Positions 2,793 to 51,456 of a DNA stretch of 64,000 nucleotides are shown here, one piece after another (position 1 is the stretch's first letter; every line of letters starts with the position of its first letter). The translations under genes and the position numbers were made by a program. Source of the stretch: an uncultured bacterium. Its GTDB lineage: Bacteria > Bacillota_I > Bacilli_A > RF39 > UBA660. The stretch is taken from assembly GCA_946560065.1 (NCBI GenBank), contig CAMNUE010000001.1, positions 62,805 to 126,804 of the forward strand. Direction: 5' to 3'. The notes under the pieces were generated by a model. It did no database searches. It saw only the letters and a list, made by a program, of their open reading frames with translations, and was not told where the DNA came from.

Positions 2793-2850
2793 TTTGACTG
2801 TTATTTAGGAGAAGGTGTTTCTCCAAAACCAAAGAAAGGAGGCAAGAATA

Positions 2851-3246
2851 ATGGCAAGTGACGGAGAGATTCTTGATTATAAAGATTTACTAAACAAATT
2901 CAATCTAACTGATGAGTTCTACCCACTTGTGTATGTATGTTCTCCATATAGAGGAAACATAGAAGAGAATACTCAAAAAGCTAGAGAGTATAGTAGATTC
3001 ACATTTGAAAAGAAAAACATACCAATAACACCACATCTTTTATACCCGCAATTCATAAATGACGATGACCTGTTTGAAAGAAACATTGCGATTCACAAAA
3101 TCAACTATGTTCTTTTAGGGCTTTGTAAAGAAGTGTGGGTTTTTGGTGATGTCATTACAGAAGGAATGAAACGAGAAATATCTGTTGCGAAGAAGAGAAA
3201 AAAGCCAATTAGGTATTTCAATCACGATTTAAAGGAGGAGAGTTAA
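2851..3246 (+). CDS. DUF4406 / nucleoside 2-deoxyribosyltransferase-like protein (tentative)
   Basis: Start moved from GTG 2815 to ATG 2851, which has an AAGGAGG RBS. VYVCSPYRG ... EVWVFGD pattern resembles the DUF4406 family. Confidence 0.45.
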   Translation: MASDGEILDYKDLLNKFNLTDEFYPLVYVCSPYRGNIEENTQKAREYSRFTFEKKNIPITPHLLYPQFINDDDLFERNIAIHKINYVLLGLCKEVWVFGDVITEGMKREISVAKKRKKPIRYFNHDLKEES

Positions 3247-7313: not shown

Positions 7314-7721
7314 ATGACAGCAAAAGAATACTTGTTACAGGCTCATTATTTAGATGAACGTATAACATCAAAGACACAACAGATAGCATCCTTAAACGAA
7401 TTAGCAACAAGATGCACGTCTACCATTTCTGATATGCCAAAGAGTCCTAATCGTGGTGGATCAAGAATGGAAGATTGCATTATTAAAATAATTGATTTGG
7501 AAGACAAGCTTAAGGAAGACATAGAAAAGTTAATAAACCTAAAGCAAGAGATAATGGAAGTTATAAGAGCAGTTCCTAACATTGAATACCAAACACTTCT
7601 TGAAAAGAGGTACTTGTGTTTCAACACTTGGGAACAAATATCTGTTGATATGAACTACTCAATACAGCATATACACCGTATGCATAGTTCAGCTTTGAAA
7701 GAAATTGTAGTTCCAAGTTAA
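7314..7721 (+). CDS. ArpU/RinA-like (DUF1492) phage late transcriptional regulator
   Basis: 135 aa. C-terminal sigma region-4-like HTH (YQTLLEKRYLCFNTWEQISVDMNYSIQHIHRMHSSALKE). Lies immediately upstream of the packaging genes. Confidence 0.6.
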   Translation: MTAKEYLLQAHYLDERITSKTQQIASLNELATRCTSTISDMPKSPNRGGSRMEDCIIKIIDLEDKLKEDIEKLINLKQEIMEVIRAVPNIEYQTLLEKRYLCFNTWEQISVDMNYSIQHIHRMHSSALKEIVVPS

Positions 7722-7794: not shown

Positions 7795-7828
7795 AAGCCT
7801 TATGGGGAAACCTGTAGGGCTTTTATTA
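7795..7828 (+). terminator. Possible terminator hairpin
   Basis: AAGCCTTA-12 nt loop-TAGGGCTT (one G-U pair) followed by TTATT. Weak. Confidence 0.35.
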
Positions 7829-7849
7829 TGCAAGAAAGGAAAAGGAAAG

Positions 7850-8224
7850 ATGCCGAAGAAACCAAAGCGTCCATGTTCTTACCCAGGATGTCCACGATTA
7901 ACAGACGGTAGGTTTTGTTTAGAACATGAGAAACAAGAAAACAAAAGGTATGAACAATACGATAGAAGTCCAGAAGTAAAGAAAAGGTACGGACGAGTTT
8001 GGAAAAGAATAAGAGATAGCTATGCAAAAGAGCACCCTTTGTGTGAGAAGTGTTTGGAACAAGGTGTGTACAGAGCGATGGAAGAGGTACATCATAGATT
8101 ACCTCTTGCAGAAGGTGGAACACATGACAGAAAGAATTTGATTTCACTTTGTAAATCATGCCATGCAACGATTCATGCTGAACGAGGAGATAGATGGAAA
8201 CCTAAACCAAAATATTATAGGTAG
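7850..8224 (+). CDS. HNH endonuclease (terminase-associated)
   Basis: Start moved to ATG 7850 because the upstream part of the ORF is the hairpin. Motif EVHHRLPLAEGGTHDRKNLISLCKSCHATIH. Sits next to terS, as in cos-type HK97-like phages. Confidence 0.85.
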   Translation: MPKKPKRPCSYPGCPRLTDGRFCLEHEKQENKRYEQYDRSPEVKKRYGRVWKRIRDSYAKEHPLCEKCLEQGVYRAMEEVHHRLPLAEGGTHDRKNLISLCKSCHATIHAERGDRWKPKPKYYR

Positions 8225-8326: not shown

Positions 8327-8884
8327 ATGCCAACAAAATCAAACAACATCGGTGGTAGAGGTGGTGCAAGAATTGGTGCTGGAAGGAAAAAATCAGCAAT
8401 TAAAGAAAAAGCACAAAATGGAAATCCAGGTGGTAGAACTTTAGAGACTTTGGATATTCCAGAAATCGAAGGAGCAGAGATGCCAAAGCCACACGAGTTC
8501 TTATCTGAAAAGCAACGTGATGGAAATGAACTACAAGCAAAAGAGATATACCAAGAAACATGGAAGTGGCTTAAAAAAGTAGGCTGTGCTCAAAAAATCT
8601 CGCCACAGCTTTTGGAGAGATATTCGATGTGCAGTGCAAGGTGGATACAATGTGAAGAACTAACTAACAAGTTGGGACTTTTATCAAAACATCCCACTAC
8701 TCAAAAACCAATACCATCGCCATTCATAAATATAGGTATCAATTATATGAATCAAGCAGTTAGATTATGGAATGAGATATTCCAAATAGTAAAAGAAAAT
8801 TGCAGTACTTCTTATGAAGATGCTGCACCACAAAATGATTTGATGGAGAGACTATTAAGAGCAAGAGAGGAGAGAAAAAAATGA
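8327..8884 (+). CDS. Terminase small subunit (P27-family-like)
   Basis: Gly/Arg-rich N-terminus GGRGGARIGAGRKKS. Size and position fit a small terminase. GGGAGG RBS. Confidence 0.7.
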   Translation: MPTKSNNIGGRGGARIGAGRKKSAIKEKAQNGNPGGRTLETLDIPEIEGAEMPKPHEFLSEKQRDGNELQAKEIYQETWKWLKKVGCAQKISPQLLERYSMCSARWIQCEELTNKLGLLSKHPTTQKPIPSPFINIGINYMNQAVRLWNEIFQIVKENCSTSYEDAAPQNDLMERLLRAREERKK

Positions 8885-9663
8885 TAGAAAAGGTTAATCC
8901 AAAGCACCCAGATAAAATTGCAGATAGAATTGCAGGTGCAATAGTTGATTTAGGATATAAGTTACAAGACAATCCTAAAATAGCAGTTGAGGTTTTAATA
9001 GGACATGGAGTTTGCTATGTAATTGTTGAAACATCAGTAGATTTTAATAAGGAAGATATAGAAAATATCATCACAAGAATAGCAGGAGATATGACAAAAG
9101 ATATCGTATTAGTTCCACAAGATATACACTTATCTAAAAACCAAGAGAAAGAGATAAGATGTGGAGATAATGGAATATTTAAAGGGACACCTTTAACTGA
9201 CGAGCAAAAGAAGTTATCTGAAATTGCTCGTTTTATTTATGAAAAATATCCAAGCGATGGTAAGTACATTTTAGATAATGAAAAACTAATTATTTGTCAA
9301 AGCAATTGTAAGACAGAGGAATTAAAAGAATTGTATCAAGATGCAACAATCAATCCATTAGGTGATTGGACAGGAGGAACTGATGTTGATACAGGTGCTA
9401 CCAATAGAAAACTTGGTTCTGATATGGCAGATGGTGTAACTGGTGGAGGACTTCATGGTAAGGATCTGTCAAAAGCAGATGTGTCAGTAAATATTTATGC
9501 TTTCTTGAAAGCTCAAGAAACTAATGAAGTTGTGAAGATATCATGTGCTATTGGTGATAAAGAAGTAGATGGAAGACCTTATGAAGAAATAGTAAACATT
9601 GCTAAAGATTACATTGAGTCTATCGGTGGATTTGAGAAATTCGCTGAATGGGGACTTTTTTAG
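8881..9663 (+). CDS. Compact (260 aa) S-adenosylmethionine synthetase (MetK)-like protein
   Basis: Retains MetK signatures: KHPDKIADRIAGAIVD (cf. GHPDKI.DQISDA), CGDNGIF (cf. GDQG), SDGKY (cf. PDAK), GATNRKL (cf. GLTGRK), GGGLHGKDLSKADVS (cf. GGGAFSGKD.SKVDRS). About 130 aa shorter than canonical MetK. ATGA overlap with terS. Confidence 0.6.
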   Translation: MIEKVNPKHPDKIADRIAGAIVDLGYKLQDNPKIAVEVLIGHGVCYVIVETSVDFNKEDIENIITRIAGDMTKDIVLVPQDIHLSKNQEKEIRCGDNGIFKGTPLTDEQKKLSEIARFIYEKYPSDGKYILDNEKLIICQSNCKTEELKELYQDATINPLGDWTGGTDVDTGATNRKLGSDMADGVTGGGLHGKDLSKADVSVNIYAFLKAQETNEVVKISCAIGDKEVDGRPYEEIVNIAKDYIESIGGFEKFAEWGLF

Positions 9664-9675
9664 GAGGTGGATAAA

Positions 9676-10935
9676 ATGTCTAAAACAACAACAGAAATGC
9701 AACTAATATCAATTGATAAATTAGTTCCTTATGTGAATAATGCAAGGACACACTCGGCAGAACAAATATTGAAACTTCGTTCTTCACTTAGAGAGTTTGG
9801 ATTTGTTAATCCAATAATAATTGATAGAGAGTTTAATGTAATTGCTGGTCATGGAAGATTGATGGCAGCTAAAGAAGAAGGAATAGAAGAAGTACCATGT
9901 GTGTTCGTTGACTACTTAACTGATGCTCAAAAGAAAGCATATATTTTAGCAGATAACCGTATGGCAATGGATGCAGGTTGGGATGAAGAATTACTTAAAA
10001 TAGAAATGGAAGAATTACAAAATCTAGGATACGATTTAGAGTTTACTGGATTTGATGAAAAAGAACTAGCTGACTTATTTGGAGTAGATGACAAAGAAGT
10101 AAAAGAGGATGAATTTGATTTAACCGCTGCCCTTGAAAAAGCAAGTTTTGTTGAAAGAGGAGATGTGTGGTTCGTAGGAAAGCATAAGTTGATGTGTGGT
10201 GATGCAACATCAAGTGAGGATGTAGCAAAACTAATGGAAGATAAAAAAGCAAACTTAATCTTAACCGACCCACCTTACAACGTAGCTTTCAAAAGTTCTG
10301 ATGGATTAACAATCCAAAATGACAGTATGGATAATAATGACTTCTATGAGTTCTTATATTTATCCTTTAAAAATATGGCAGACCATTTGGAAAACGGTGG
10401 TGCTGCATATGTATTCCATGCTGATACAGAAGGCTTGAATTTTAGAAAAGCTTTTATAGATGCAGGATTTCATTTAGCAGGTTGTTGCATATGGGTAAAA
10501 GATAGTTTAGTACTTGGTCGTTCAGATTATCAATGGCAACATGAACCTGTTTTATATGGTTTCTTGCAAAATGGAAAACATCCATGGTATTCAGATAGAA
10601 AACAAACTACTATCTGGAACTTTGATAAGCCTAAAAAGAACTCAAATCATCCAACTTCTAAACCGCTTGATTTATTAGCTTATCCAATAAACAATTCAAC
10701 TCAGGCTAATGCAATTGTTATAGACACATTTGGTGGTAGTGGATCAACACTTATGGCTTGTGAGCAAATGAATAGAATTTGCTACACAATGGAACTTGAT
10801 GAAAAATATGCATCAGTTATTTTAAGAAGATATGTTGAAGATACTAACGATAGTGAAAATGTGTATGTAATTAGAGATGGTGTGAAGATATTGTATAAAG
10901 ATTTAGTTAAAGAGGTAGAAGTTGATAATGGATAA
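9676..10935 (+). CDS. ParB-like nuclease domain fused to N6-adenine/N4-cytosine DNA methyltransferase
   Basis: Start at ATG 9676 (AGGAGG RBS). N-terminal ParB-like motif (IIAGHGRL). LILTDPPYN (DPPY catalytic motif) and C-terminal FGGSGST SAM-binding motif. Confidence 0.85.
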   Translation: MSKTTTEMQLISIDKLVPYVNNARTHSAEQILKLRSSLREFGFVNPIIIDREFNVIAGHGRLMAAKEEGIEEVPCVFVDYLTDAQKKAYILADNRMAMDAGWDEELLKIEMEELQNLGYDLEFTGFDEKELADLFGVDDKEVKEDEFDLTAALEKASFVERGDVWFVGKHKLMCGDATSSEDVAKLMEDKKANLILTDPPYNVAFKSSDGLTIQNDSMDNNDFYEFLYLSFKNMADHLENGGAAYVFHADTEGLNFRKAFIDAGFHLAGCCIWVKDSLVLGRSDYQWQHEPVLYGFLQNGKHPWYSDRKQTTIWNFDKPKKNSNHPTSKPLDLLAYPINNSTQANAIVIDTFGGSGSTLMACEQMNRICYTMELDEKYASVILRRYVEDTNDSENVYVIRDGVKILYKDLVKEVEVDNG

Positions 10936-12301
10936 AGAACTGACACTTGCAAGTTTATTTGACGGAAGTGGTGGTTTTCCATTAGGTGGGATGTTAGCAG
11001 GGATTAAACCTGTATGGAGTTCAGAGATAGAGCCATTTGCAATAAGGGTAACAACTAAAAGATTATCCAAAGTAAAGCATTATGGCGATATTACTAAAAT
11101 AAAAGGAAATGAAGTAGAGCCCGTAGATATAATTACCTTTGGAAGTCCATGCCAGGATATGTCGATAGCGGGTAAAAGAGCAGGATTAGACGGAAGCAGG
11201 TCTAATCTTTTTTATGAAGCAATAAGAGTAGTAAAAGAAATGAGGTGTGCAACTAATGGAGAAAAGCCAAGATATATTGTCTGGGAAAATGTCACAGGAG
11301 CCTTCTCTTCAAACAAAGGGGACGACTTCAAAAGTGTCCTTGAAGAAATCTGCAAAGTCAAACATCAAGAATTGTCTATTCCTAAACCTGCAAAGTGGCA
11401 ACAAGCAGGAACGATTATGGGAGATGATTTCTCAATCGCATGGCGAGTATTTGATGCTCAGTTTTGGGGAGTTCCCCAGAGAAGAAATCGTATCTACCTT
11501 GTCGCAGATTTTGGAGGAAACAGTGCCTCAAAAATACTATTTGAGTCAGAGGGCTTGTCAGGGTATTCTAAGGAGAGCTTCAAGTCGTGGCAGGACTCTT
11601 CCAGAAACATTGAAGATAGCATTAGAGAATCAGGCAAGTTAGATTTATTTGAAAATCACTCGCAAGATTTAAGATATAAAGGACCATTGAATGTTGCACC
11701 AACAGTTCTTTCAACTTATGGAACTGGTGGCAACAATCAACCATTTATTGTTCATTCAAAAAACTATGATGTAAGATTAACATCTGAAGGTACAAAGAAT
11801 GCAAGGAATAATGTGTATGAAACAGAAACATCTAGAACTCTTGATACTAATGGAAACTTTCCAAATTCAAATCAAGGTGGAGTAGCAATTGTTTATTCGA
11901 CAAGCAAGAGTTCATTTCATATTAGAGCAAGTGAAAATCTAGCTAATACATTAATTGCAACTGACTATATGGATCCTCCAATAGTGAATGATAAGTTAAG
12001 AGTTAGAAGACTTACACCAAAAGAATGTGCAAGACTTCAAGGTTTTCCTGATTGGTGGTGTTCTAATTTAGAAACAAAAGAACCAACCAAAGAAGATATT
12101 GATTATTGGAGAGAAGTATTTAATGAAAGTTCTAAAGCAGAAGGAAAAAACAAAAAAGAAAAGACAGATAGCCAAATAATTAAATGGCTACAAAATCCTC
12201 ATTCTGATTCAGCTGAATATAAGTTATGGGGGAATGGTGTAGCACTTCCATGTGTTTACTTTGTTCTATCTGGAATCGAGTATTATGCACACATCACTTG
12301 A
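10928..12301 (+). CDS. DNA (cytosine-5)-methyltransferase
   Basis: LFDGSGG (motif I), GSPCQDMSIAG (PC motif IV), WENV (motif VI), QRRNR (motif VIII), C-terminal GNGV (motif X). Confidence 0.9.
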   Translation: MDKELTLASLFDGSGGFPLGGMLAGIKPVWSSEIEPFAIRVTTKRLSKVKHYGDITKIKGNEVEPVDIITFGSPCQDMSIAGKRAGLDGSRSNLFYEAIRVVKEMRCATNGEKPRYIVWENVTGAFSSNKGDDFKSVLEEICKVKHQELSIPKPAKWQQAGTIMGDDFSIAWRVFDAQFWGVPQRRNRIYLVADFGGNSASKILFESEGLSGYSKESFKSWQDSSRNIEDSIRESGKLDLFENHSQDLRYKGPLNVAPTVLSTYGTGGNNQPFIVHSKNYDVRLTSEGTKNARNNVYETETSRTLDTNGNFPNSNQGGVAIVYSTSKSSFHIRASENLANTLIATDYMDPPIVNDKLRVRRLTPKECARLQGFPDWWCSNLETKEPTKEDIDYWREVFNESSKAEGKNKKEKTDSQIIKWLQNPHSDSAEYKLWGNGVALPCVYFVLSGIEYYAHIT

Positions 12302-12331
12302 TAAATATGTGTTTTAGAGTGATATATGTAA
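12296..12331 (+). promoter_or_regulatory. Conserved promoter-like element, copy 1 (upstream of DUF4314 gene)
   Basis: ACTTGATAAATATGTGTTTTAGAGTGATATATGTA: a TTGATA -35-like box plus a TG-extended -10-like TGATATAT. Overlaps the dcm stop codon. Confidence 0.55.
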
Positions 12332-12349
12332 TGCAAGGAGGTAAACAAT

Positions 12350-12568
12350 ATGATGTTTCCAAAAAAAGAAATCGTTGAAAGAATACGAAAAGAATATCCA
12401 AAAGGAACAAGAGTAAGGCTTATAAAGATGGATGATATGCAGGCTCCACCACTTGGAACAGAAGGGACTGTAATTGGTGTAGATGATACTGGATCAATTA
12501 TGGTTGCCTGGGACAATGGTAGTTCTTTAAATGTTATTTACAATGTCGACAAATGTATCAAAATATAG
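12350..12568 (+). CDS. DUF4314 domain protein
   Basis: 72 aa. GTRVRLIKMDD..PPLGTEGTVIGVDDTGSIMVAWDNGSSL matches the DUF4314 pattern common on conjugative elements and phages. GGAGG RBS. Confidence 0.55.
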   Translation: MMFPKKEIVERIRKEYPKGTRVRLIKMDDMQAPPLGTEGTVIGVDDTGSIMVAWDNGSSLNVIYNVDKCIKI

Positions 12569-12598
12569 CAAAAAATATACACTTATTTTGCCTAAATG

Positions 12599-12634
12599 AC
12601 TTGATATATATGCCTTTTAGAGTGATATATATAC
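12599..12634 (+). promoter_or_regulatory. Conserved promoter-like element, copy 2 (upstream of amidoligase)
   Basis: ACTTGATATATATGCCTTTTAGAGTGATATATATA. TGATATATA occurs at 12602 and 12623, exactly 21 bp apart. Confidence 0.55.
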
Positions 12635-12676
12635 ATAACAAAAAGAGGAAATCTTATATAAAGAAAGGTGAGTAAG

Positions 12677-13633
12677 ATGAGTGAAAAAGCAATAAGACAA
12701 TCCGAAAAAATGAAAGAACAAACAATCGGAGTAGAAGTTGAAATGAATAACATAACCAGAGAGAAAGCTGCAAAGATAGCAGCCGAGTTATTTGGAACAG
12801 GCAGATATGAATACACAGATAATAGAAATGGATACTTAACATGGTCTGCCTGGTCAAGTGACGGAAGAGAATGGAAGTTTCAAAGAGATACAAGTATTTC
12901 TGGAGTAGAAAGTAAAAAATGTGAATTGGTAACACCAATATTAAAGTATGACGATATTGAAACATTACAGGAACTAATAAGACTTTTAAGGAAAGCAGGT
13001 GCAAAGAGTGATGCAACAAGAGGATGCGGAGTTCACATCCACATAGGAGCAGATGGACACACACCTCAAACAATGAGAAACCTAGCAAACATTATGGCAA
13101 GTCATGAATTGTTGATAGCAGATGCATTAAAACTTGATTCAATGAGAATGGCTAGATATTGCAGAACAGTTAATCCAGAGTTCTTAAGAGTACTTAATAG
13201 AAAGAAACCAAAGACAATGTCAAAATTCGCAGACATTTGGTATCAAACACAAAATGCTAGTTATTATAGAAATCAGCATTACAACGATAGCAGATACCAT
13301 ATGCTAAACTTCCATGCAACATTTACAAAAGGAACTATTGAATTTAGATTATTTCAATTTGATCCACCAGCAGAAGGAAAACAAAATGGACTTCATGCAG
13401 GACAATTAAAAAGCTACATTCAATTTTGCCTAGCATTAAGTCAAATGGCAAAAGATGTGAAATTTGCATCAGCCAAAAGACAACAAAATGATAATCCAAA
13501 ATATGCAATGAGAACATGGTTATTAAGATTAGGATTCATTGGAGATGAATTTAAAACAGCAAGAGATGTATTAACAAAAAGACTTGAAGGTGACACAGCA
13601 TTTAGACAAAAAAGAGTAAGCTCAAGGAGTTAG
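12677..13633 (+). CDS. Glutamine-synthetase-like amidoligase (Amidoligase_2 family)
   Basis: Start at ATG 12677 (AAAGGTGAG RBS). Motifs IGVEVEM, CGVHIHIG, RYHMLNF and GTIEFRLFQ are typical of the family as I recall it. Confidence 0.65.
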   Translation: MSEKAIRQSEKMKEQTIGVEVEMNNITREKAAKIAAELFGTGRYEYTDNRNGYLTWSAWSSDGREWKFQRDTSISGVESKKCELVTPILKYDDIETLQELIRLLRKAGAKSDATRGCGVHIHIGADGHTPQTMRNLANIMASHELLIADALKLDSMRMARYCRTVNPEFLRVLNRKKPKTMSKFADIWYQTQNASYYRNQHYNDSRYHMLNFHATFTKGTIEFRLFQFDPPAEGKQNGLHAGQLKSYIQFCLALSQMAKDVKFASAKRQQNDNPKYAMRTWLLRLGFIGDEFKTARDVLTKRLEGDTAFRQKRVSSRS

Positions 13634-13716
13634 CCTCCTGGTACTTTAATCGGCAGCATTGACTGCCCTTAAGGTGGTAGAAGGGTAATCCCTTGAAAAA
13701 GAAAGGAGGATATCTT

Positions 13717-14202
13717 ATGGAGAGGAGATATTATATAGCTTACGGTAGTAATTTAAATGTTAGACAGATGAAATACAGATGTCCAACAGCAAGGATTATT
13801 GGAACATCGGTTATTAAGGATTATGAATTATTATTTAAAGGTAGTAAGACAGGTTCTTATTTAACCATTGAAAAAAAGAAAGGCGAACAAGTACCAGTAG
13901 TAATTTGGGAAACAAAAGAAAGTGATGAACTTGCACTTGATAGATATGAAGGATGCCCACAGTTTTATTACAAAACTGAAATGTATCTTCCAATCAAAGG
14001 AATTAAATCAAAAAAGATAAGAATTAGAAAAGCCTATGTTTATATAATGCATGAAGATAGAGAACTTGGAATACCAAGTCAACATTATTTGGGAACTTGC
14101 CTTGAAGGATATTTAAGGTTTGGTTTTAATCCAGATTATTTAGTAGATGCTCTGAATAAAAGTAAAAGTGGGAGGATAGAAGATGAAGAAGGAATTGAAT
14201 AG
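13717..14202 (+). CDS. Gamma-glutamylcyclotransferase (GGCT/AIG2-like)
   Basis: Start at ATG 13717 (AGGAGG RBS). N-terminal YIAYGSNLN..M..RCP motif and downstream ..LDRYEG.. characteristic of the GGCT fold. Confidence 0.7.
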   Translation: MERRYYIAYGSNLNVRQMKYRCPTARIIGTSVIKDYELLFKGSKTGSYLTIEKKKGEQVPVVIWETKESDELALDRYEGCPQFYYKTEMYLPIKGIKSKKIRIRKAYVYIMHEDRELGIPSQHYLGTCLEGYLRFGFNPDYLVDALNKSKSGRIEDEEGIE

Positions 14203-14383
14203 GACAAGAAAATGTCCAAAATGTGGAGCAGAATATCAAGGACATCCTGCAATATCAAGAAGAGATAATAAAACACCAATATGTCCCGATTGTGGAACAA
14301 GGGAGGCACTTGAGTCAATAGGTGTTGATATTAAGGAACAAGAACACATCATTAAAACAATACATAGAACTCAAGAAAAATAA
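14183..14383 (+). CDS. Zinc-ribbon protein (66 aa), unknown function
   Basis: CPKCG ... CPDCG four-Cys ribbon. Overlaps the GGCT 3' end by 20 nt, suggesting translational coupling. Confidence 0.5.
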   Translation: MKKELNRTRKCPKCGAEYQGHPAISRRDNKTPICPDCGTREALESIGVDIKEQEHIIKTIHRTQEK

Positions 14384-14403
14384 AACTAAATAAATATTTT
14401 TTG

Positions 14404-14432
14404 AAAGCACTTCATTTATGGAGTGCTTTTTG
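14404..14432 (+). terminator. Rho-independent terminator closing the accessory cassette
   Basis: AAAGCACT-10 nt loop-AGTGCTTT followed by a T run. Lies inside the 5' extension of the listed terL ORF. Confidence 0.7.
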
Positions 14433-14452
14433 TGTGGAAGGGAGATGATAAA

Positions 14453-28283: not shown

Positions 28284-28700
28284 ATGAGCAAAGCAATACA
28301 GTTTAAGAATAAAAGTGGTGAGAAGATTTATCCATGCCCTTATTATCCAATTGGTAGTGTTTATATATCTGTAAATAGTATAAATCCAGGCACTATCTTT
28401 GGAGGTACATGGGAACAAATAAAAGATAGATTTTTGTTAGCTTGTGGCAATACATATTCAAATGGTAGCACAGGTGGCGAGTCTACTCACAAATTGACAG
28501 TTGATGAAATGCCATCGCATAACCATCAACAGAGAGTTCAAAATACAAGTGGCTATGGTGGTGCAGATGGACAAGAAGCAGGAACTGGATGGGGAGGGTC
28601 ATCGCATTATGCTAACTGGAATCAGAATACTGGTGGGAGTAAGGCTCATAATAATATGCCTCCGTACCTTGCAGTTTATGTTTGGAAGAGGGTGAGCTAA
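28284..28700 (+). CDS. Tail collar fibre-domain protein
   Basis: GGESTHKLTVDEMPSHNH ... AHNNMPPYLAVYVWKR, as in the phage tail collar domain. N-terminus MSKAIQFKN is shared with the next two genes. Confidence 0.7.
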   Translation: MSKAIQFKNKSGEKIYPCPYYPIGSVYISVNSINPGTIFGGTWEQIKDRFLLACGNTYSNGSTGGESTHKLTVDEMPSHNHQQRVQNTSGYGGADGQEAGTGWGGSSHYANWNQNTGGSKAHNNMPPYLAVYVWKRVS

Positions 28701-29230
28701 TGAGTAAAGCTATAAAATTTAAAAATAATACTTATTTAGATAGCAGTTCAGTAGTTCATAATAAAGTTGCATTGAATACGATATTAACTCCAAATTATAT
28801 GATAATTGGAAAAAGCGTAGAACCGTTAAGATGGGCGGATAAAGGGACATGGGCTACGATGGATTTTAAAACAAGACTTGATTCAAATGGAACTAAACTT
28901 ACTCATTCAGGAAATGCAATAAAAATAGGAACTGGAGTATCAAAAATAAGAGTTGTGGCACAAGTTTTATATGATGGTTCAAATGTAGATGCATCAAGTA
29001 ATTATATTTTTATGAGAATAAGTCAAAACAATGTTGGAAAAAGTAAAACCATAAATGGATTTCATAGATGGGGAACATTGCATACAGAAGCAATACTAAA
29101 AGTATCTTCTGGTGATTTAATTAAATGTGATGTTCTAAAAAGTATGAGTAATGAAATAGGTTTTTATGATTATACAGGAAACTTTGGTGCAGGTGTTGGA
29201 TGTTATTTAATGGTTGAAGTTATTGAATAG
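28700..29230 (+). CDS. Fibre/receptor-binding paralogue 1 (unknown fold)
   Basis: Start at ATG 28700, overlapping the previous stop codon. N-terminus MSKAIKFKNNTYLDSSSVVHNK is near-identical to the product of 29241. Confidence 0.5.
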   Translation: MSKAIKFKNNTYLDSSSVVHNKVALNTILTPNYMIIGKSVEPLRWADKGTWATMDFKTRLDSNGTKLTHSGNAIKIGTGVSKIRVVAQVLYDGSNVDASSNYIFMRISQNNVGKSKTINGFHRWGTLHTEAILKVSSGDLIKCDVLKSMSNEIGFYDYTGNFGAGVGCYLMVEVIE

Positions 29231-29240
29231 GAGGAAGTAA

Positions 29241-29621
29241 ATGAGTAAAGCGATAAAATTTAGAAATAATACTTATTTAGACAGTAGTTCAATTACACAT
29301 AATAAAACAACTTTAAAATCAATACTAGATACATATAATGGTCGTAAGTTTTTAGAATGGAAATCAACATCATCTAAAAATTTAAATGATGATGTGTATA
29401 TAACACCAGGGTTATTTACTATTGGTGGATCATATAGTAATTGTTATACTTCTGGAACAATCTATGGAGTGTTAATGGTACTAACCAACGATGGTGGTAA
29501 ATGGAGAAAAACAGATAGCAGTAGTTGGTTGTGGCAAATAATAATAACAACAGGTGGTAGTATTTGGATGAGAAGAGGAATAAATGGTTCAGTACCAGAA
29601 GGCTGGACACAATATCACTAG
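29241..29621 (+). CDS. Fibre/receptor-binding paralogue 2 (unknown fold)
   Basis: N-terminus MSKAIKFRNNTYLDSSSITHNK; the C-terminus is unrelated to paralogue 1. Confidence 0.5.
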   Translation: MSKAIKFRNNTYLDSSSITHNKTTLKSILDTYNGRKFLEWKSTSSKNLNDDVYITPGLFTIGGSYSNCYTSGTIYGVLMVLTNDGGKWRKTDSSSWLWQIIITTGGSIWMRRGINGSVPEGWTQYH

Positions 29622-32585: not shown

Positions 32586-32739
32586 AAATGAAATAACCTA
32601 TCAAATTACAATGAGTCATTTAAAAGATATGTTAGATAAAAAGATTATTTCAATTGAAGAATACAATCAAATGATGGCTGAATTTAAAGAGAAATATACG
32701 CCAAAAATAAGCAGTTTATTCTTTGAAATAGCCCAATAA
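32575..32739 (+). CDS. Small SHOCT-like protein (54 aa)
   Basis: Start at ATG 32575 (GGTGG RBS), 11-nt overlap with the upstream gene. LDKKIISIEEYNQMMAEFKEKY resembles SHOCT-type helices often found upstream of Firmicute serine recombinases. Confidence 0.45.
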   Translation: MKLKNEITYQITMSHLKDMLDKKIISIEEYNQMMAEFKEKYTPKISSLFFEIAQ

Positions 32740-32740
32740 G

Positions 32741-32776
32741 ACTTGATATATACATCATTTAGAGTGATATATAGTA
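32741..32776 (+). promoter_or_regulatory. Conserved promoter-like element, copy 3 (upstream of serine recombinase 1)
   Basis: ACTTGATATATACATCATTTAGAGTGATATATAGTA. TGATATATA occurs at 32744 and 32765, 21 bp apart. Confidence 0.55.
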
Positions 32777-32798
32777 ATGATAAAAATGGAGGTGTAAG

Positions 32799-34160
32799 AT
32801 GCGAAAAATAACAAAATTAGAAACAAAAAACATAGAGCTTCCTAAACTTAAAAGAGTAGCTGCTTATGCAAGAGTATCAGTTGAAAGAGGCAGAACACTA
32901 CATTCTTATTCTGCTCAAGTTAGTTACTACAATGAATTAATACAAAAAAATCCAGAGTGGGAATTTGCAGGAGTTTATTCTGATTTAGGTATAAGTGGTA
33001 CAGGAATTGAAAAACGTAATGACTTTAAAAGGTTATTACAAGATTGTGAGGAAGGCAAGATTGATATTATTCTTACAAAATCTATTTCAAGATTTGCTAG
33101 AAATACAGTTGACCTTTTAAATGTAGTAAGGCACTTAAAAGAATTAGGTATTGAAGTTAGATTTGAAAAAGAAGGCATCAGTTCCTTAACAGGGGATGGA
33201 GAACTTATGCTTTCAATACTAGCTTCATTTGCTCAAGAAGAGGTTATATCAACAAGTAACAATATTAAATGGGCTATAAAAAAGAAATTTGAAAGTGGGA
33301 AACCTCAATGCAGATATAAGATATATGGGTATCGTTGGGATAGTGATAATTTAGTAATAGAACCTGAAGAGGCAAAAATAGTAAAGCTCATATTTGAAAT
33401 GTATTTAAATAAAGTATCAGCAGAAAGAATGGAGATAGAACTTAAAAAGATGGGTGTGATTGCAACTAATGGAGGATATTTTAATATTGGAACTATTAGA
33501 GATATGCTATTAAATATAACTTATACTGGAAATTTATTATTACAAAAATCCTATACACCAAATCCCTTGGTAAGAAGAAAACAAAAAAATAATGGACAAC
33601 TTCCAAAATACTATGTCGAGAATAACCACGAAGCCATAATTCCTATGGAGATGTTTATGCAAGTTCAAGAAGAAAGGAAAAGAAGAAAGGCAGAAGGTCA
33701 AAGAGCTAATTTTGGTAAAAATATAACCTGCTTTTCTTGCAGAGTTAAGTGTCCGATATGTGGCAAAAACTATATGAGAAATTCAAGGTCTAGAAGGTCT
33801 AATGGCATAAAGGCTCATATATGGACTTGTGGCACTAGATTAACTGGTGGATCAAAAGCTTGTCCAGCAAAAACTATAAATGAAATCGCACTAAAAAGGG
33901 TATCTACTAAAGTTCTTGGATTAGATGAATTTGACTCAAATGCATTTGATGAACAAATAGAAAAAGTAATTGTAATTGGTGATGATGTTTTAGAATTTCA
34001 TTTTAATGATGGAAGGATAATAAGTGAAAAATGGGAATTTAATGGTAGGAAGGAATATTGGACAGAGGAAAGAAGAAAAGAGCGAGGAGAAAAGCTAAAA
34101 AAGATTTGGAGGGAAAAAAATGTCAAAAAAAGTAACGACAATACCAGCGTTATTAAATAA
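32799..34160 (+). CDS. Large serine recombinase 1
   Basis: Resolvase catalytic domain VAAYARVSVERG..SYSAQ, ILTKSISRFARNT, recombinase domain and a Cys-rich zinc ribbon (CFSCRVKCPICG). 453 aa. Confidence 0.9.
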   Translation: MRKITKLETKNIELPKLKRVAAYARVSVERGRTLHSYSAQVSYYNELIQKNPEWEFAGVYSDLGISGTGIEKRNDFKRLLQDCEEGKIDIILTKSISRFARNTVDLLNVVRHLKELGIEVRFEKEGISSLTGDGELMLSILASFAQEEVISTSNNIKWAIKKKFESGKPQCRYKIYGYRWDSDNLVIEPEEAKIVKLIFEMYLNKVSAERMEIELKKMGVIATNGGYFNIGTIRDMLLNITYTGNLLLQKSYTPNPLVRRKQKNNGQLPKYYVENNHEAIIPMEMFMQVQEERKRRKAEGQRANFGKNITCFSCRVKCPICGKNYMRNSRSRRSNGIKAHIWTCGTRLTGGSKACPAKTINEIALKRVSTKVLGLDEFDSNAFDEQIEKVIVIGDDVLEFHFNDGRIISEKWEFNGRKEYWTEERRKERGEKLKKIWREKNVKKSNDNTSVIK

Positions 34161-35697
34161 GCAATCTACAAATCAGGCTGGGGCAATAAAAAAGAGGAGA
34201 GTTGCTGCTTATGCCAGAGTTTCAACCGACCAAGAAGAACAATTAACAAGTTATGAGGCACAGGTTGATTATTATACAAATTATATTAAATCAAGAGATG
34301 ATTGGGAATTTGTCGACGTTTATACTGATGAAGGTATAAGTGGTACATCTACCAAGCATCGTGAAGGATTTAACAAAATGGTTAAATCTGCATTAGATGG
34401 TAACATCGATTTAATCATTACAAAGTCTGTTTCAAGGTTTGCTAGAAATACAGTAGATAGTTTAACAACTATAAGAAAACTAAAAGATATAGGATGTGAA
34501 TGCTATTTTGAAAAAGAAAACATCTGGACATTTGATGGTAAGGGTGAGTTGCTGCTTACAATAATGAGTTCATTAGCACAAGAGGAAAGTAGATCCATAT
34601 CAGAGAATGTTAAATGGGGACACAGAAAAAGATTTGCAGATGGTAAGGTATCAGTGCCATTTAATAATTTCCTAGGATATAAAAAAGGAGAAGATGGAAA
34701 TCTTGTTATTGATGAAGAACAAGCAATAATAGTAAAAAGAATATATCGTGAATTTTTATCAGGGTCATCATCTGTTGCTATTGCAAAGGGACTAACAAAT
34801 GATGGAATAGAGACTCCAGGACATAAACAAAAATGGTATGCTACAACTGTTAGGAGTATTCTTACCAACGAAAAATATAAAGGAGATGCCTTACTTCAAA
34901 AGCATTATACCGTTGATTTCTTAACTAAAAAGCAAAAAATAAATGAAGGAGAGGTACAACAATACTATGTTGAAAATAACCATCCTGCGATTATAGAACC
35001 AGATGTATTCGAGATGGTAAGATTAGAAATTGATAGACGATTAATGCTTAAGGGTAAGTATAGTGGAACTGATATTTTGACAGCGAAGATTAGATGTGGG
35101 GAATGTGGTGGTAGCTATGGAGCTAAAGTATGGCATTCAAATGATAAGTATAGAAGGGTAATGTATCAATGCAATAGTAAATACTCTGGAAAAGAGAAAT
35201 GTAAAACACCCGCAATAAGGTCTGAAGATATTGAAAGCAGATTTGTAAACGTAGTTAATATATTAATTGAAAGTAAAGATGAGATAATTTCAAATTTAGA
35301 AAAAGTACTTGATAAGATATGTAATAAAAAAGAACTATCAAAAGAAAAAGAAAAACTAGAGAATAGCCTAACAGAGCAAGTAGAAAAAATACAAGAACTT
35401 ATTGATATGAATTCAAGAGTAGCACAAAACCAAGAAAAATATAAAAAAGAATATGATGCCATGATAAAAACTTATGATGAAACAAAGTTTAAGTATGAAC
35501 AGTTAGAAATTGAATCATCACAACAAGCAGCAAAGCATCAGATGATAAAAGACTACATTAATACTTTAAAGAAACAAAATAAACCTTTGACAAAGTTTGA
35601 TGGATTAATGTGGGGGAGCTTACTAGAAAGTGCAACAATTAAAGATAAAGATACCATAGTATTTAAATTTAAAGATGGAACAGAAATAAATGGATAA
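34120..35697 (+). CDS. Large serine recombinase 2
   Basis: VAAYARVSTDQEEQLTSYEAQ, IITKSVSRFARNT, zinc ribbon CGECGG and a C-terminal coiled coil. 525 aa. Overlaps recombinase 1 by 41 nt. Confidence 0.9.
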   Translation: MSKKVTTIPALLNKQSTNQAGAIKKRRVAAYARVSTDQEEQLTSYEAQVDYYTNYIKSRDDWEFVDVYTDEGISGTSTKHREGFNKMVKSALDGNIDLIITKSVSRFARNTVDSLTTIRKLKDIGCECYFEKENIWTFDGKGELLLTIMSSLAQEESRSISENVKWGHRKRFADGKVSVPFNNFLGYKKGEDGNLVIDEEQAIIVKRIYREFLSGSSSVAIAKGLTNDGIETPGHKQKWYATTVRSILTNEKYKGDALLQKHYTVDFLTKKQKINEGEVQQYYVENNHPAIIEPDVFEMVRLEIDRRLMLKGKYSGTDILTAKIRCGECGGSYGAKVWHSNDKYRRVMYQCNSKYSGKEKCKTPAIRSEDIESRFVNVVNILIESKDEIISNLEKVLDKICNKKELSKEKEKLENSLTEQVEKIQELIDMNSRVAQNQEKYKKEYDAMIKTYDETKFKYEQLEIESSQQAAKHQMIKDYINTLKKQNKPLTKFDGLMWGSLLESATIKDKDTIVFKFKDGTEING

Positions 35698-48558: not shown

Positions 48559-51456
48559 ATGAGAGAAGTAAAATATAAAAAAAATAATAAGATGAGTAAG
48601 GGTTTTACTCTGGTTGAATTAATAGTAACAATTATAATATTAGGAATTGTAACCGCAATGACATTTCCTTTAATTAGAAAAATTGCTAGTGACGGAGAAA
48701 ATAAAAAGTACACTATTTACAAAGATAATGTAGCTTCAAGCGCAAAATTATACACTGATTCATACAACGAAGATATGTTTGGACACAATAAATCAGGTTG
48801 TGCTTATATTCCATACAAGAAATTAGAAGAAAAAAAACTTATTAAAGATATCCAAGTTGATGAAATGACATGTGATACAGAAGAAACATATGTTAAAGTC
48901 ATTAAAGTAAATAATCGATATAGTTATAATACTTATGTCGGTTGCGGAAAAGAGACATCTCCATATTCAAAGGTCAAAATAATTAAAAGACTTCCCGCAA
49001 CTATTCCAGAAATGGTCGAGGAAAACTGTGAGATTGGAAAGTCAACAATTTCTATTGAAGCCAGTCCTGCATCTTCTAAAGTTCCAGAAAAACAACAAAT
49101 GACTGTCAAAGTTACTTTAAAGAGTAGTACAGGTATTGATACTAATTCAAACATACATTATGGATGGTCTAAATCTAATAATTATACTGGAGTAACAAGC
49201 TGGAGTAAGCTTTCCATTTCAATTCCATCAAAAGAAGAACAGAATAAAACAATATTCGAAAATCTTAAAGATGTTGAAACATCTACTAATGTAACAACAC
49301 CAAACGGATTAAATGGAGATTACTATTTGTTTATTAAAGTTGACAGATTGACGGATTTAGTTGGAGCACCATATGATGGAAATATGAAAATGTTTGGAAG
49401 TTATAGATTAGATAATATAGCACCAAATCTAAATGATTCAACTATTATTTCAAACAACAAAAATTATAATACTTTAGAGCCTAAACTAAACTTAAAAGCA
49501 ACAGATAATTATACTCCAACAGGCAGTCTTAAAATGTGTATTTCATATGAAAAGGATAACTGTAAAAAAACTTCAACAGATATATCTAAATACAGCAACT
49601 ACGCTTCATCAGAAGTTCTATCTAAGATATCTAACAAATATGATGGTTCAAAACATAAAGTTTACATAACAATTGCTGATAGAGCTGGAAATCATACCAC
49701 TAAGGTGTTTAATTATGATATTTCTAAAACTTACACACTTAAATATAACTCTAATGGTGGAAGTTCATGTGCTTCTCAAGCAGCATCAATAAATGGTACA
49801 TGGGGAACACTATGTGTACCAAAACGTACAGGCTATACGTTTAGAAGTTGGAATACTAAAAAAGATGGAACCGGAACAACAATAACAGCTAACGATATTG
49901 CTAAATCAGACCTAACTGTTTATGCTCAATGGAGTTTAACAACGTACACAATTTCTTATAATTTGAATGGTGGTACAGTTAGTGGAAATCCAACAACATA
50001 TACTATAAATACCAATACATTTACATTAAAAAATCCAACAAAAACAGGTGACAAATTTAGCGGTTGGTCAGGAACAGGACTAAAAAGTAATACAAGGAGT
50101 GTTACAATAAAGAAAGGTTCAACAGGAAATAGAGTATACACAGCTAATTGGAATAGTACAATTTACGTTTTAACATTCAATTCTGATGGAGGAACAACTT
50201 GTAGTCCAACATCAATAAGTAAAAAATACAATGCAACTTGGGGAACATTATGTACACCAACTAAGTCAGGATATAACTTTGGAGGTTGGTATACAAAACA
50301 AAATGGTGGAGGTACCAACATAAAAAGTTCATCTAAAGCAACATCAAATTTAACAGTTTATGCTAAGTGGACAGCTAATACAAAAAATTATAAATTAACA
50401 TACAATTCAGCTGGTGGAACAACTTGTAGCCCAAGCTCAATAAGTAGAAGTCAGAATACAGCTTGGGGAACACTATGTACACCAAATAAATCAGGATATA
50501 CTTTTGGAGGTTGGTATACTAAAGCAAATGGACAAGGCAGTAATATAACAGCATCATCATTGGCTACTTCAAACATAACGGTTTACGCCAAATGGAATCC
50601 ACATAAACCAACATGTAGTATATCAATACCAGATACTAAAGGAGAAAATGGCTGGTACAAGAAAAATGTAACAGTAAACATGACAACAAATGGAGTTGTC
50701 TCAAAATATGGATTAGCAACAACAGTAAATTCAACAAATGGAAAAAAATCAGTCTCTGCAACAGCCGAAGGAACAACAACATACTACGGGTATGTATCTA
50801 ATGCATCAGGATCTAACACATGTCAAATAACAGTTAAGATTGACAAAACAGCACCAACATGTACCCACTCTGGATGGTCAAAAACATGGCAGAAAGAAAA
50901 AAGGGAAATAAAATGGGGATGTAGTGATTCAACAAGTAAATGTAATTCTAGTTATAATGGTGGAAGTAAGACATTTAATGCATCAACTAAGACTGCAAAG
51001 ATAAGTGCATATACAATAAAAGATAATGCTGGAAATACTACAAAATGTCCAGCGAAAACAGCCAATGTTTATGTTGATAAAACACCACCAGAAGATATAT
51101 ATCACGATACATCACATAAAACTTCATGCTTCAGCTACAGTCATTGTGGTAAAAATCAAGAAAACTGTGTCATTTCAAAGAAAACTGCCTGTGGAGGGAC
51201 AAAAGTAATAAAAAAAGATGCACACAGTGGAATTGATTATGCTTTATACAAGAGTACAGGAACTGATTGTAAACATGGTGGTTATACATCCAGTACAGCA
51301 ACAACAGGAGATTGGAAGAGATACTCAGAATGGCAAGCTGTATATTACAAGCTAAACACATGCAAAAAGACAACAATAAAACAGAAAACTGTAGATAATG
51401 TTGGAAATGTCAGTTCAGTTTACACATATAAATTTAATAACTTATGGATAAAATAA
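48559..51456 (+). CDS. 965-aa modular type IV pilin-like protein (prepilin N-terminus + Listeria-Bacteroides-type repeats + Cys-rich C-terminal region)
   Basis: Class III signal ..MSKG/FTLVELIVTIIILGIVTAM. Four repeats of ~70 aa of the type Y.L.YNSNGG....GTLC.P.K.GY.F.GW.T...G.G......LTVYA.W. Cys-rich tail. Confidence 0.8.
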   Translation: MREVKYKKNNKMSKGFTLVELIVTIIILGIVTAMTFPLIRKIASDGENKKYTIYKDNVASSAKLYTDSYNEDMFGHNKSGCAYIPYKKLEEKKLIKDIQVDEMTCDTEETYVKVIKVNNRYSYNTYVGCGKETSPYSKVKIIKRLPATIPEMVEENCEIGKSTISIEASPASSKVPEKQQMTVKVTLKSSTGIDTNSNIHYGWSKSNNYTGVTSWSKLSISIPSKEEQNKTIFENLKDVETSTNVTTPNGLNGDYYLFIKVDRLTDLVGAPYDGNMKMFGSYRLDNIAPNLNDSTIISNNKNYNTLEPKLNLKATDNYTPTGSLKMCISYEKDNCKKTSTDISKYSNYASSEVLSKISNKYDGSKHKVYITIADRAGNHTTKVFNYDISKTYTLKYNSNGGSSCASQAASINGTWGTLCVPKRTGYTFRSWNTKKDGTGTTITANDIAKSDLTVYAQWSLTTYTISYNLNGGTVSGNPTTYTINTNTFTLKNPTKTGDKFSGWSGTGLKSNTRSVTIKKGSTGNRVYTANWNSTIYVLTFNSDGGTTCSPTSISKKYNATWGTLCTPTKSGYNFGGWYTKQNGGGTNIKSSSKATSNLTVYAKWTANTKNYKLTYNSAGGTTCSPSSISRSQNTAWGTLCTPNKSGYTFGGWYTKANGQGSNITASSLATSNITVYAKWNPHKPTCSISIPDTKGENGWYKKNVTVNMTTNGVVSKYGLATTVNSTNGKKSVSATAEGTTTYYGYVSNASGSNTCQITVKIDKTAPTCTHSGWSKTWQKEKREIKWGCSDSTSKCNSSYNGGSKTFNASTKTAKISAYTIKDNAGNTTKCPAKTANVYVDKTPPEDIYHDTSHKTSCFSYSHCGKNQENCVISKKTACGGTKVIKKDAHSGIDYALYKSTGTDCKHGGYTSSTATTGDWKRYSEWQAVYYKLNTCKKTTIKQKTVDNVGNVSSVYTYKFNNLWIK
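49732..50595 (+). repeat. Four tandem ~70-aa coding repeats (Flg_new / Listeria-Bacteroides repeat type)
   Basis: Repeats begin YTLKYNSNGG, YTISYNLNGG, YVLTFNSDGG and YKLTYNSAGG, and each ends ..VYA(Q/K)W or ..YTANW. Confidence 0.75.

Follow-up and report, generated by a model that had tools for sequence, protein, structure and literature searches.

A prophage region in a 64,000-nucleotide stretch of DNA from an uncultured bacterium (GTDB lineage Bacillota_I; Bacilli_A; RF39; UBA660; GenBank assembly GCA_946560065.1, contig CAMNUE010000001.1, forward strand positions 62,805 to 126,804) carries a small group of co-directional genes between the terminase genes terS and terL. The whole stretch is referred to as the window and all positions are counted from its first letter. 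The genes encode, in this order, a DUF4314 protein, a ligase of the Amidoligase_2 family, an enzyme related to γ-glutamyl cyclotransferases (GGCT) and a zinc ribbon protein. A promoter-like element precedes the ligase gene, a structured RNA spans the junction of the two enzyme genes and a terminator-like hairpin follows the zinc ribbon gene. The two enzymes and the elements that accompany them were analysed in silico, following up a first-pass annotation of the same DNA. All eight features checked from that annotation proved to be present, with qualifications for the promoter-like element and the terminator.

The amidoligase

The ligase gene (12677–13633, plus strand) encodes 318 residues. Its ATG is also the start of a database protein of 100% identity (P0001), and a GTG at 12668 is an alternative. 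The product matched the Amidoligase_2 profile PF12224 over profile positions 1–244 of 245 (E 1e-54; 186.5 bits, cut-off 22) as well as phrog_2443 (E 7e-111). When its AlphaFold2 model (pLDDT 80.6, pTM 0.83) was compared with known structures using Foldseek, the γ-glutamylcysteine synthetase (γ-GCS) domain of GshF was returned as the best match (E 9e-5, probability 1.0), followed by γ-glutamylmethylamide synthetase (GmaS), glutamine synthetases (GS) and the E. coli γ-GCS GshA. The best-matching enzymes over the full length all activate the γ-carboxylate of glutamate. Partial, short matches in the same list were to AdoMetDC (~130 columns) and RnlA.

Among 30 sequences with identities down to 36%, conservation reaches 90% or more at residues E20, E22, E83, H120, H122, E222 and R224. 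The resulting ExE, E, HxH and ExR signatures, predicted to bind metal and ATP, would correspond to the catalytic positions of GS. The strings IGVEVEM, GVHIHIG and GTIEFRLF, on which the first-pass annotation had based a GS-like amidoligase, hold the near-invariant pairs E20/E22, H120/H122 and E222/R224, respectively, and both the profile match and the GS/γ-GCS-fold model bear this assignment out. No N-terminal hydrophobic signal was seen in the sequence of either the ligase or the cyclotransferase, and both enzymes are therefore probably cytoplasmic.

The C-terminal ~70 residues of the ligase (13400–13633, residues ~245–313), with the motif KYAMRTWLLRLGFIGDEFKTARD..L.G..AFR, lie outside PF12224. 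This segment recurs with 40% identity over 73 residues in a separate ~245-aa ‘virulence-related’ protein (locus L008, 4898–5641), whose gene is located between the C5 methylase and DUF4314 genes in most relatives and is missing from the window. The segment common to both proteins may serve in docking or oligomerisation. At the other end, the N-terminal ~60 residues (12677–12860) are matched by AcrIF9 over its whole 68 residues (6w1x_I). This marginal match to the ligase-family profile (E 0.036) was treated as noise; it is probably due to chance and could alternatively reflect a fragment of the ligase fold.

The cyclotransferase

The second enzyme gene (13717–14202, plus strand) encodes 161 residues matching PF06094 (E 4e-11; 43.9 bits, cut-off 22.8), PF13772 (E 2e-6; 28.6 bits, cut-off 27) and phrog_2520 (E 1e-49). 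Among the structures found by Foldseek with its AlphaFold2 model (pLDDT 87.6), human GGCT ranked highest (TM-score 0.75, E 6e-11), followed by Bacillus subtilis YkqA (0.72), ChaC2 (0.61) and GGACT (0.52). The YGSNL motif of the human enzyme and its catalytic Glu98, the residue mutated in 3cry, have their counterparts in Y9-G10-S11-N12-L13 and E78, which are invariant across 26 homologues. Profile matches, fold and the retained catalytic Glu thus agree with the first identification of a GGCT/AIG2-like enzyme, made from the string YIAYGSNLN. The model further places the protein with the dipeptide-specific GGCT type rather than with the GGACT type that acts on γ-glutamyl-amines or -lysine.

Conservation of the enzyme pair

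Searches with the ligase gave at least 8,000 candidates and those with the cyclotransferase 5,618 matches. Gene order was compared in 80 genome loci and the closest 80 viral contigs, in which the ligase is 73–100% identical to that of the window, and in 12 loci of divergent clades, found by single divergent queries, in which it is only ~40% identical. The hosts of the former two sets include Lachnospiraceae, Oscillospiraceae, Erysipelotrichaceae and Peptostreptococcaceae, among further groups. Their gene order is near-invariant, namely HNH, TerS, (MetK-like), ParB-methylase, (C5 methylase), the ~245-aa gene, DUF4314, ligase, cyclotransferase, zinc ribbon, a variable stretch of 0.1–4 kb, TerL and portal. 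Iterated profiles placed the cyclotransferase after the ligase at 144 of 160 loci and detected the zinc ribbon at 143 of 160; DUF4314 preceded the ligase at 137 of 165.

The divergent clades separate these components. The ligase and cyclotransferase occur together in 10 of the 12 loci, likewise flanked by TerS and TerL and with MetK-like and ParB-methylase genes next to them, whereas DUF4314 is present in three and the zinc ribbon in none. It follows that the two enzymes make up the functional core; the trio of amidoligase, GGCT and zinc ribbon, presented in the first-pass annotation as one cassette, is a feature of the lineage.

The co-occurrence of the two enzyme genes, proposed from the window, is far beyond chance and extends beyond this phage lineage. 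In Arthrobacter cluster AL phages, genes for a GGACT (E 2e-18), a ligase and a GATase are adjacent (PMC5513430), and in Bacillus phage 031MP004 the ligase and cyclotransferase genes are 1.1 kb apart; the zinc ribbon is absent from both. Pseudomonas LUZ24-like phages encode both Amidoligase_2 and GGCT-fold proteins (PMC3890496), and one representative protein, P0279, is a fusion of ligase and GGCT. A Porphyromonas phage has a methyltransferase gene adjoining that of the amidoligase.

Plasmids are a different matter. The pairing had been ascribed to phages and conjugative elements alike; this applies to phages, but among 72,556 plasmid records there were six matches, all weak and all on records typed as non-mobilizable, by which conjugative plasmids were ruled out as carriers. 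The ligase clade is a prophage feature and not one of conjugative elements. A search of PADLOC-DB 2.0 gave no match for the ligase, the cyclotransferase, the DUF4314 or the MetK-like protein.

The junction RNA

The ligase stop, a spacer of 83 nt (13634–13716) and the cyclotransferase ribosome-binding site form a conserved structured RNA on the plus strand (13620–13725; core CUUAAGGUGGUAGAAGGG). The spacer, described as structured in the first-pass annotation, folds at −28.2 kcal/mol with a z-score of −2.95, in agreement with that description. A covariance model scored 68.9 bits (E 2e-13) at this position and gave no match elsewhere in the window, in positions 1–48000 of the Terrisporobacter phage TPDSL_ph1 or in the divergent clades. 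Among the relatives it identified a single copy in each locus, on the plus strand and at the 3′ end of the ligase gene, the exception being the viral contig L137, which has two copies (2574–2673 and 3000–3099) ~430 nt apart; the tblastn match of the adjoining ligase is interrupted there. In 111 of 112 viral contigs an 18-mer core (CTTAAGGTGGTAGAAGGG) immediately follows a ligase gene; of the genes that come next, 99 of 104 encode the cyclotransferase and four encode DUF4314. Rfam models gave nothing at gathering score in the 64 kb, and merely noise (E ≥1) with a 201-nt region.

The inner GC hairpin is 98% paired with compensatory changes. Helix P1 (CCACCUUA / UAAGGUGG) is 90% paired, as is hairpin P3 (GAAGGG / CCCUUC), which borders directly on the Shine-Dalgarno sequence of the cyclotransferase gene, GGAAAGGA; pairing in the outer helix P0 is weak (64%). 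RNAalifold on a MAFFT alignment recovered the inner hairpin, the other helices being specified by hand and then counted. The strands can form two mutually exclusive pairing registers, and in the minimum-free-energy fold of the window sequence CCUCCU, just past the ligase stop, pairs with the AGGAGG of the ribosome-binding site. In the divergent clades, the junction between the two genes is a TAATG overlap or an 11-nt gap. Given a conserved RNA at the junction, alternative registers over the ribosome-binding site and tight coupling in other clades, we infer that the RNA would act as a translational-coupling or ratio-setting device.

The upstream element and the terminator-like hairpin

A promoter-like element ends 30 nt before the ligase start codon (12592–12646, plus strand). 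With its position weight matrix (PWM), which scores this copy at 60.4, two further plus-strand matches were obtained in the 64 kb, one directly upstream of DUF4314 (12289–12343; 40.7) and one before the first of two serine recombinase genes (32734–32788; 29.9). The three copies were also found as a repeat family. The consensus from 127 distinct instances in related loci is CTTG[C/A]TAT-N9-TTTAGAGTGATATATGTA..ACCAAAAG. All these instances are on the coding strand, upstream of the start codons of the ~245-aa gene, the ligase gene or genes inserted after the zinc ribbon. The complete phage TPDSL_ph1 has two copies only, both within its amidoligase module.

A standard σ70 promoter is not supported, as a scan for the σ70 consensus did not match the element; the distance from TTG[A/C]TA to TGnTATAT is 19 nt. 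That a phage sigma factor uses the element as a general promoter is unlikely, as TPDSL_ph1 encodes a sigma factor and yet has just the two module copies. We retain the promoter-like element of the first-pass annotation as a stereotyped and repeated element and regard it as a putative module-specific promoter or operator, from which a transcript would start ~7 nt past TGATATAT. Since the element was not found before HNH, TerS or TerL, the cassette appears to stand outside the late regulon. The copy before the recombinases suggests co-regulation of the integrase and the amidoligase module.

At the other end, a hairpin followed by a U-run (14403–14437, plus strand) lies between the zinc ribbon stop and the probable TerL start. 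The hairpin (14403–14430; 12-bp stem, 4-nt loop, −14.4 kcal/mol, z −2.8) precedes UUUUUGUG. It had been called a strong terminator; the hairpin is present, but it is of moderate strength and a terminator consensus scan of the window gave no match at its position. In relatives in which TerL follows directly, terminator-like hairpins of unrelated sequence are found at the same place, immediately before TerL. The longest TerL reading frame of the window begins with GTG at 14423, within the hairpin. Relatives with a TerL N-terminus of MRKLKKYKPTK point by homology to a start in the window at TTG 14453, with the ribosome-binding site GGAAGGGAG. This is probably the true start, which would leave the hairpin intergenic.

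The zinc ribbon and DUF4314 proteins

The zinc ribbon gene (14183–14383, plus strand; phrog_2945, E 4e-24) shares 20 nt with the cyclotransferase gene and encodes 66 residues with a CxxC..CxxC arrangement, both as first annotated, together with a conserved EQExILxTIHR helix. It gave two weak matches in PADLOC-DB 2.0 (E 0.0016 and 0.0036). Across ~130 homologues the C-terminal residues are variable, with no conserved terminal Glu or Gln, and the match to LysW is not significant (E 0.12); a LysW- or Pup-like carrier was rejected on these grounds.

The DUF4314 gene (12350–12568, plus strand) encodes a small β-barrel protein of 72 residues (PF14192, E 1.6e-31; phrog_3782). Its C-terminus (...CIKI) lacks the terminal Glu or Gln of a carrier. 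The N-terminal half resembles designed half double-psi β-barrel proteins (7du6, E 1.9e-5) and the C-terminal half gave weak SH3/MIB-like matches; the protein may dimerise into a small barrel. Both small proteins are lineage-specific accessories and possibly regulators or adaptors. Of the two roles originally considered for them, substrate or adaptor, the latter is possible; the former does not hold for a carrier-type zinc ribbon, as a conserved C-terminal Glu or Gln is missing.

The prophage setting

The prophage portion of the window extends to ~35.7 kb, where it ends with two tandem, partly overlapping large serine recombinase genes (32799–35697; the first at 32799–34160, plus strand) and is followed by host genes. 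Its left end lies outside the window. Upstream of the cassette are genes for HNH (7802–8224), TerS (8327–8884), a short MetK-like protein (8881–9663), a ParB-N6/N4 methylase (9667–10935) and a C5 methylase (10922–12301). After the latter, DUF4314, ligase, cyclotransferase and zinc ribbon follow in the same direction, and then TerL and portal. The coordinates confirm the placement originally given, between terS and terL and next to methyltransferases and a MetK-like gene. The cassette has the same GC content as the neighbouring genes, which rules out recent acquisition and indicates that the cassette is long-resident.

The MetK-like protein has 260 residues and matches the N-terminal domain only, at 45.8 bits against a cut-off of 309 bits for true MetK; its homologues in the divergent clades have ~400 residues. 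That the short version synthesises S-adenosylmethionine (SAM) is doubtful. Directly upstream of HNH–TerS lies a DUF1492/phrog_36 regulator of the ArpU type (7314–7721), a putative late activator. In the replication module, a DUF7768 protein (2815–3246), annotated as nucleoside 2-deoxyribosyltransferase in the relative TPDSL_ph1, is the only one elsewhere in the phage that hints at chemistry on nucleotides or bases. Two small adjacent late genes are paralogues, their 5′ segments (28699–28798 and 29240–29339) being 76% identical. In the host part, a pilin-like protein (48559–51456) contains tandem Listeria-Bacteroides repeats, which correspond to 225-nt repeats at the DNA level (49801–50596).

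Discussion

A proposed coupled two-step module

The interpretation that we favour, and to which we give about an even chance, is a coupled module for γ-glutamyl ligation and subsequent cyclisation, organised as an autonomous accessory operon with a role in phage fitness or counter-defence. The operon would long have been resident in temperate, HK97-like siphoviruses that infect gut Firmicutes and form a very large lineage; it would be an insertion between terS and terL that has a conserved upstream element and a terminator of its own. In the first step, the ligase would spend ATP to activate a glutamate-type carboxylate as acyl-phosphate and join it to an amine, as suggested by the ligase fold and the retained ExE, E, HxH and ExR residues. 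In the second step, for which the GGCT fold, the YGSNL motif and the catalytic Glu speak, the cyclotransferase would let the free α-amine attack the amide, releasing 5-oxoproline and regenerating the amine. The likeness to the dipeptide-specific human GGCT suggests that the intermediate is a small molecule, most likely a γ-glutamyl-amino acid or γ-glutamyl-amine, and not a modified protein. The amounts of the two proteins would be coupled through the junction RNA over the cyclotransferase ribosome-binding site, and in other clades through the overlap of stop and start codons. The fixed position beside DNA methylases and the MetK-like gene, in ~90% of the lineage, points to a function during infection that serves phage fitness or counter-defence, rather than to variable defence cargo.

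Two forms of such chemistry can be envisaged. One would be an ATP-driven cycle from glutamate to 5-oxoproline. In the other, the γ-glutamyl group would serve as a transient protecting or activating group, for which butirosin synthesis provides a model. There, the ATP-dependent γ-glutamyl ligase BtrJ installs the group and BtrG, of GGCT fold, removes this protection again, so that a ligase and a GGCT-fold enzyme act in the same succession as the phage pair might. BtrJ, however, is an ATP-grasp enzyme and not GS-like, the butirosin pathway uses a carrier protein, and biosynthetic partners are not encoded here.

Several observations weigh against our interpretation. The match of the ligase to the GS/γ-GCS fold is weak, with TM-scores of 0.35–0.47; these are low because the phage protein, at 318 residues, is a minimal version of a fold of 440–500 residues. 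PDB searches with the ligase sequence by itself and with a profile returned no match to GS or glutamate–cysteine ligase (GCL), so that together with the weak fold match glutamate as the carboxylate is an extrapolation. In ~10% of the loci (L073, L079 and L017 among them) the ligase and the RNA occur without the cyclotransferase, and in the fusion protein P0279 the cyclotransferase domain lacks both YGS and the catalytic Glu. The activities of promoter, terminator and RNA switch are all predictions. A pure cycle consuming ATP and glutamate, moreover, offers no obvious benefit to the phage. Finally, a literature search found no experimental characterisation of any member, in keeping with the statement of the first-pass annotation that the pairing was known from comparative genomics alone.

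Relation to known systems

According to citing papers and Pfam, an Amidoligase_2/AIG2-GGCT neighbourhood was predicted for Firmicutes phages by Iyer, Abhiman, Burroughs and Aravind in 2009 (reportedly in Mol Biosyst). The two adjacent families are the same, and the window represents another member with nothing essential different. Module B of Clostridioides difficile Tn6164 shows the identical order of SAM-synthetase-like gene, N4/N6 methylase, ‘virulence-related protein’, amidoligase, AIG2/GGCT and terminase (PMC3485107), and the pair is annotated, with this gene order likewise published, in prophages of C. clostridioforme LM41 as well as in TPDSL_ph1. The gene pairing has thus been predicted before; new are the definition of the core, the assignment to the GGCT type, the junction RNA, the upstream element and the scale of conservation.

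In the γ-glutamyl cycle, GshA or the N-domain of GshF, together with human GGCT (C7orf24), are the best structural matches of the two phage proteins. Chemically, the cycle comprises the same two-step loop as is proposed here, in which glutamate, an amino acid and ATP give a γ-glutamyl-amino acid, which is then resolved into 5-oxoproline and the amino acid. In contrast to that cycle, the phage ligase is minimal, without detectable sequence similarity to GshA, and a glutathione synthetase partner is missing. The gene clusters of LUZ24-like, phiEco32 and Arthrobacter AL phages have Amidoligase_2 in common with the window, those of the LUZ24-like and AL phages a GGCT-fold protein as well. They are, however, surrounded by early or replication genes and encode a GATase and in many cases an ATP-grasp ligase, whereas the Firmicutes version has neither and lies inside the packaging region.

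Alternative interpretations

The strongest competitor, though improbable by our estimate, is the one that the first-pass annotation had favoured, in which the enzymes are antagonists. The ligase would place glutamate or another group on a phage or host protein, at a lysine, the N-terminus or a carboxylate, and the cyclotransferase would remove it; DUF4314, the zinc ribbon, a virion or a defence protein are candidate targets. The Pup ligase PafA and the depupylase Dop belong to the superfamily of the ligase, which lends this idea some support, as do the two small proteins co-encoded in this clade, the weak, non-significant LysW-like match of the zinc ribbon and the C-terminal module common to the ligase and a second phage protein, which could be a docking motif. 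In pupylation and the LysW system, too, a small protein is the partner of a ligase that belongs to the GS superfamily or depends on ATP. Yet neither the zinc ribbon nor DUF4314 has the C-terminal Glu or Gln of such carriers, the fold of the ‘eraser’ is another one, and the divergent clades keep the enzyme pair while dispensing with the zinc ribbon and mostly with DUF4314. The cyclotransferase is nearest to the dipeptide-specific GGCT and not to GGACT, and known GGCT-fold enzymes use free γ-glutamyl compounds with a free α-amine, not proteins. Coupled synthesis of both enzymes would also be odd for an on/off mark; co-transcribed and tightly coupled genes fit consecutive steps better, and this, along with the GGCT-type cyclotransferase, speaks against antagonists.

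Somewhat less probable still is host conversion or exclusion, in which the pair would alter the cell wall or a metabolite pool of the lysogen and thereby block superinfection or change its physiology. The peptidoglycan stem peptide, which contains γ-D-Glu, exemplifies a possible target; this cell-wall idea was proposed earlier for phiEco32-type clusters and is said in secondary literature to go back to Iyer et al. in 2009. A moron-like architecture with its own upstream element and terminator is consistent with it, and the same element before the integrase gene indicates that the cassette may be active outside the late programme. Its position, however, is fixed in ~90% of a huge lineage, quite unlike that of variable defence cargo. 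Neither enzyme has a PADLOC match, both are probably cytoplasmic, and the GC content does not set the cassette apart from its neighbours.

A more specific and, in our view, rather remote version of the two-step module would make the ATP-driven γ-glutamyl cycle an early weapon or counter-defence. A host metabolite of the glutamate or amine type would be drained or converted, or an amine that is needed would be shielded by transient γ-glutamylation. The junction RNA would in this case be a new cis-regulatory element, possibly sensing a ligand, by which the ratio of ligase to cyclotransferase follows the level of the γ-glutamyl intermediate.

DNA hypermodification, in which an amino-acid-type group would be added to or trimmed on phage DNA before packaging, alongside the neighbouring methylases, is the weakest rival and very unlikely: the cassette does follow two DNA methylases and the MetK-like gene and directly precedes TerL, a methyltransferase adjoins the amidoligase in the Porphyromonas phage, and amidoligase and amidotransferase genes of unassigned role occur in thymidine-hypermodification clusters (Lee et al., PMC8989533), but 5-hydroxymethyluracil (5-hmU) kinase, aGPT-pyrophosphorylase, dUMP hydroxymethylase and TET/JBP were neither found among the scanned phage genes of the window nor annotated in the complete TPDSL_ph1, unmodified DNA offers no carboxylate and poor amine nucleophiles, and a GGCT-type enzyme requires a γ-glutamyl group with a free α-amine.

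Implications

The ligase family is extremely common among prophages of gut Firmicutes. The question of its function is now narrowed to a core of two enzymes, with a dipeptide-type cyclotransferase, putative stoichiometric coupling and predicted control elements of its own, including an RNA absent from Rfam. This makes a direct biochemical test feasible, the answer to which could reveal a new form of metabolic manipulation or counter-defence by phages in the human gut microbiome.

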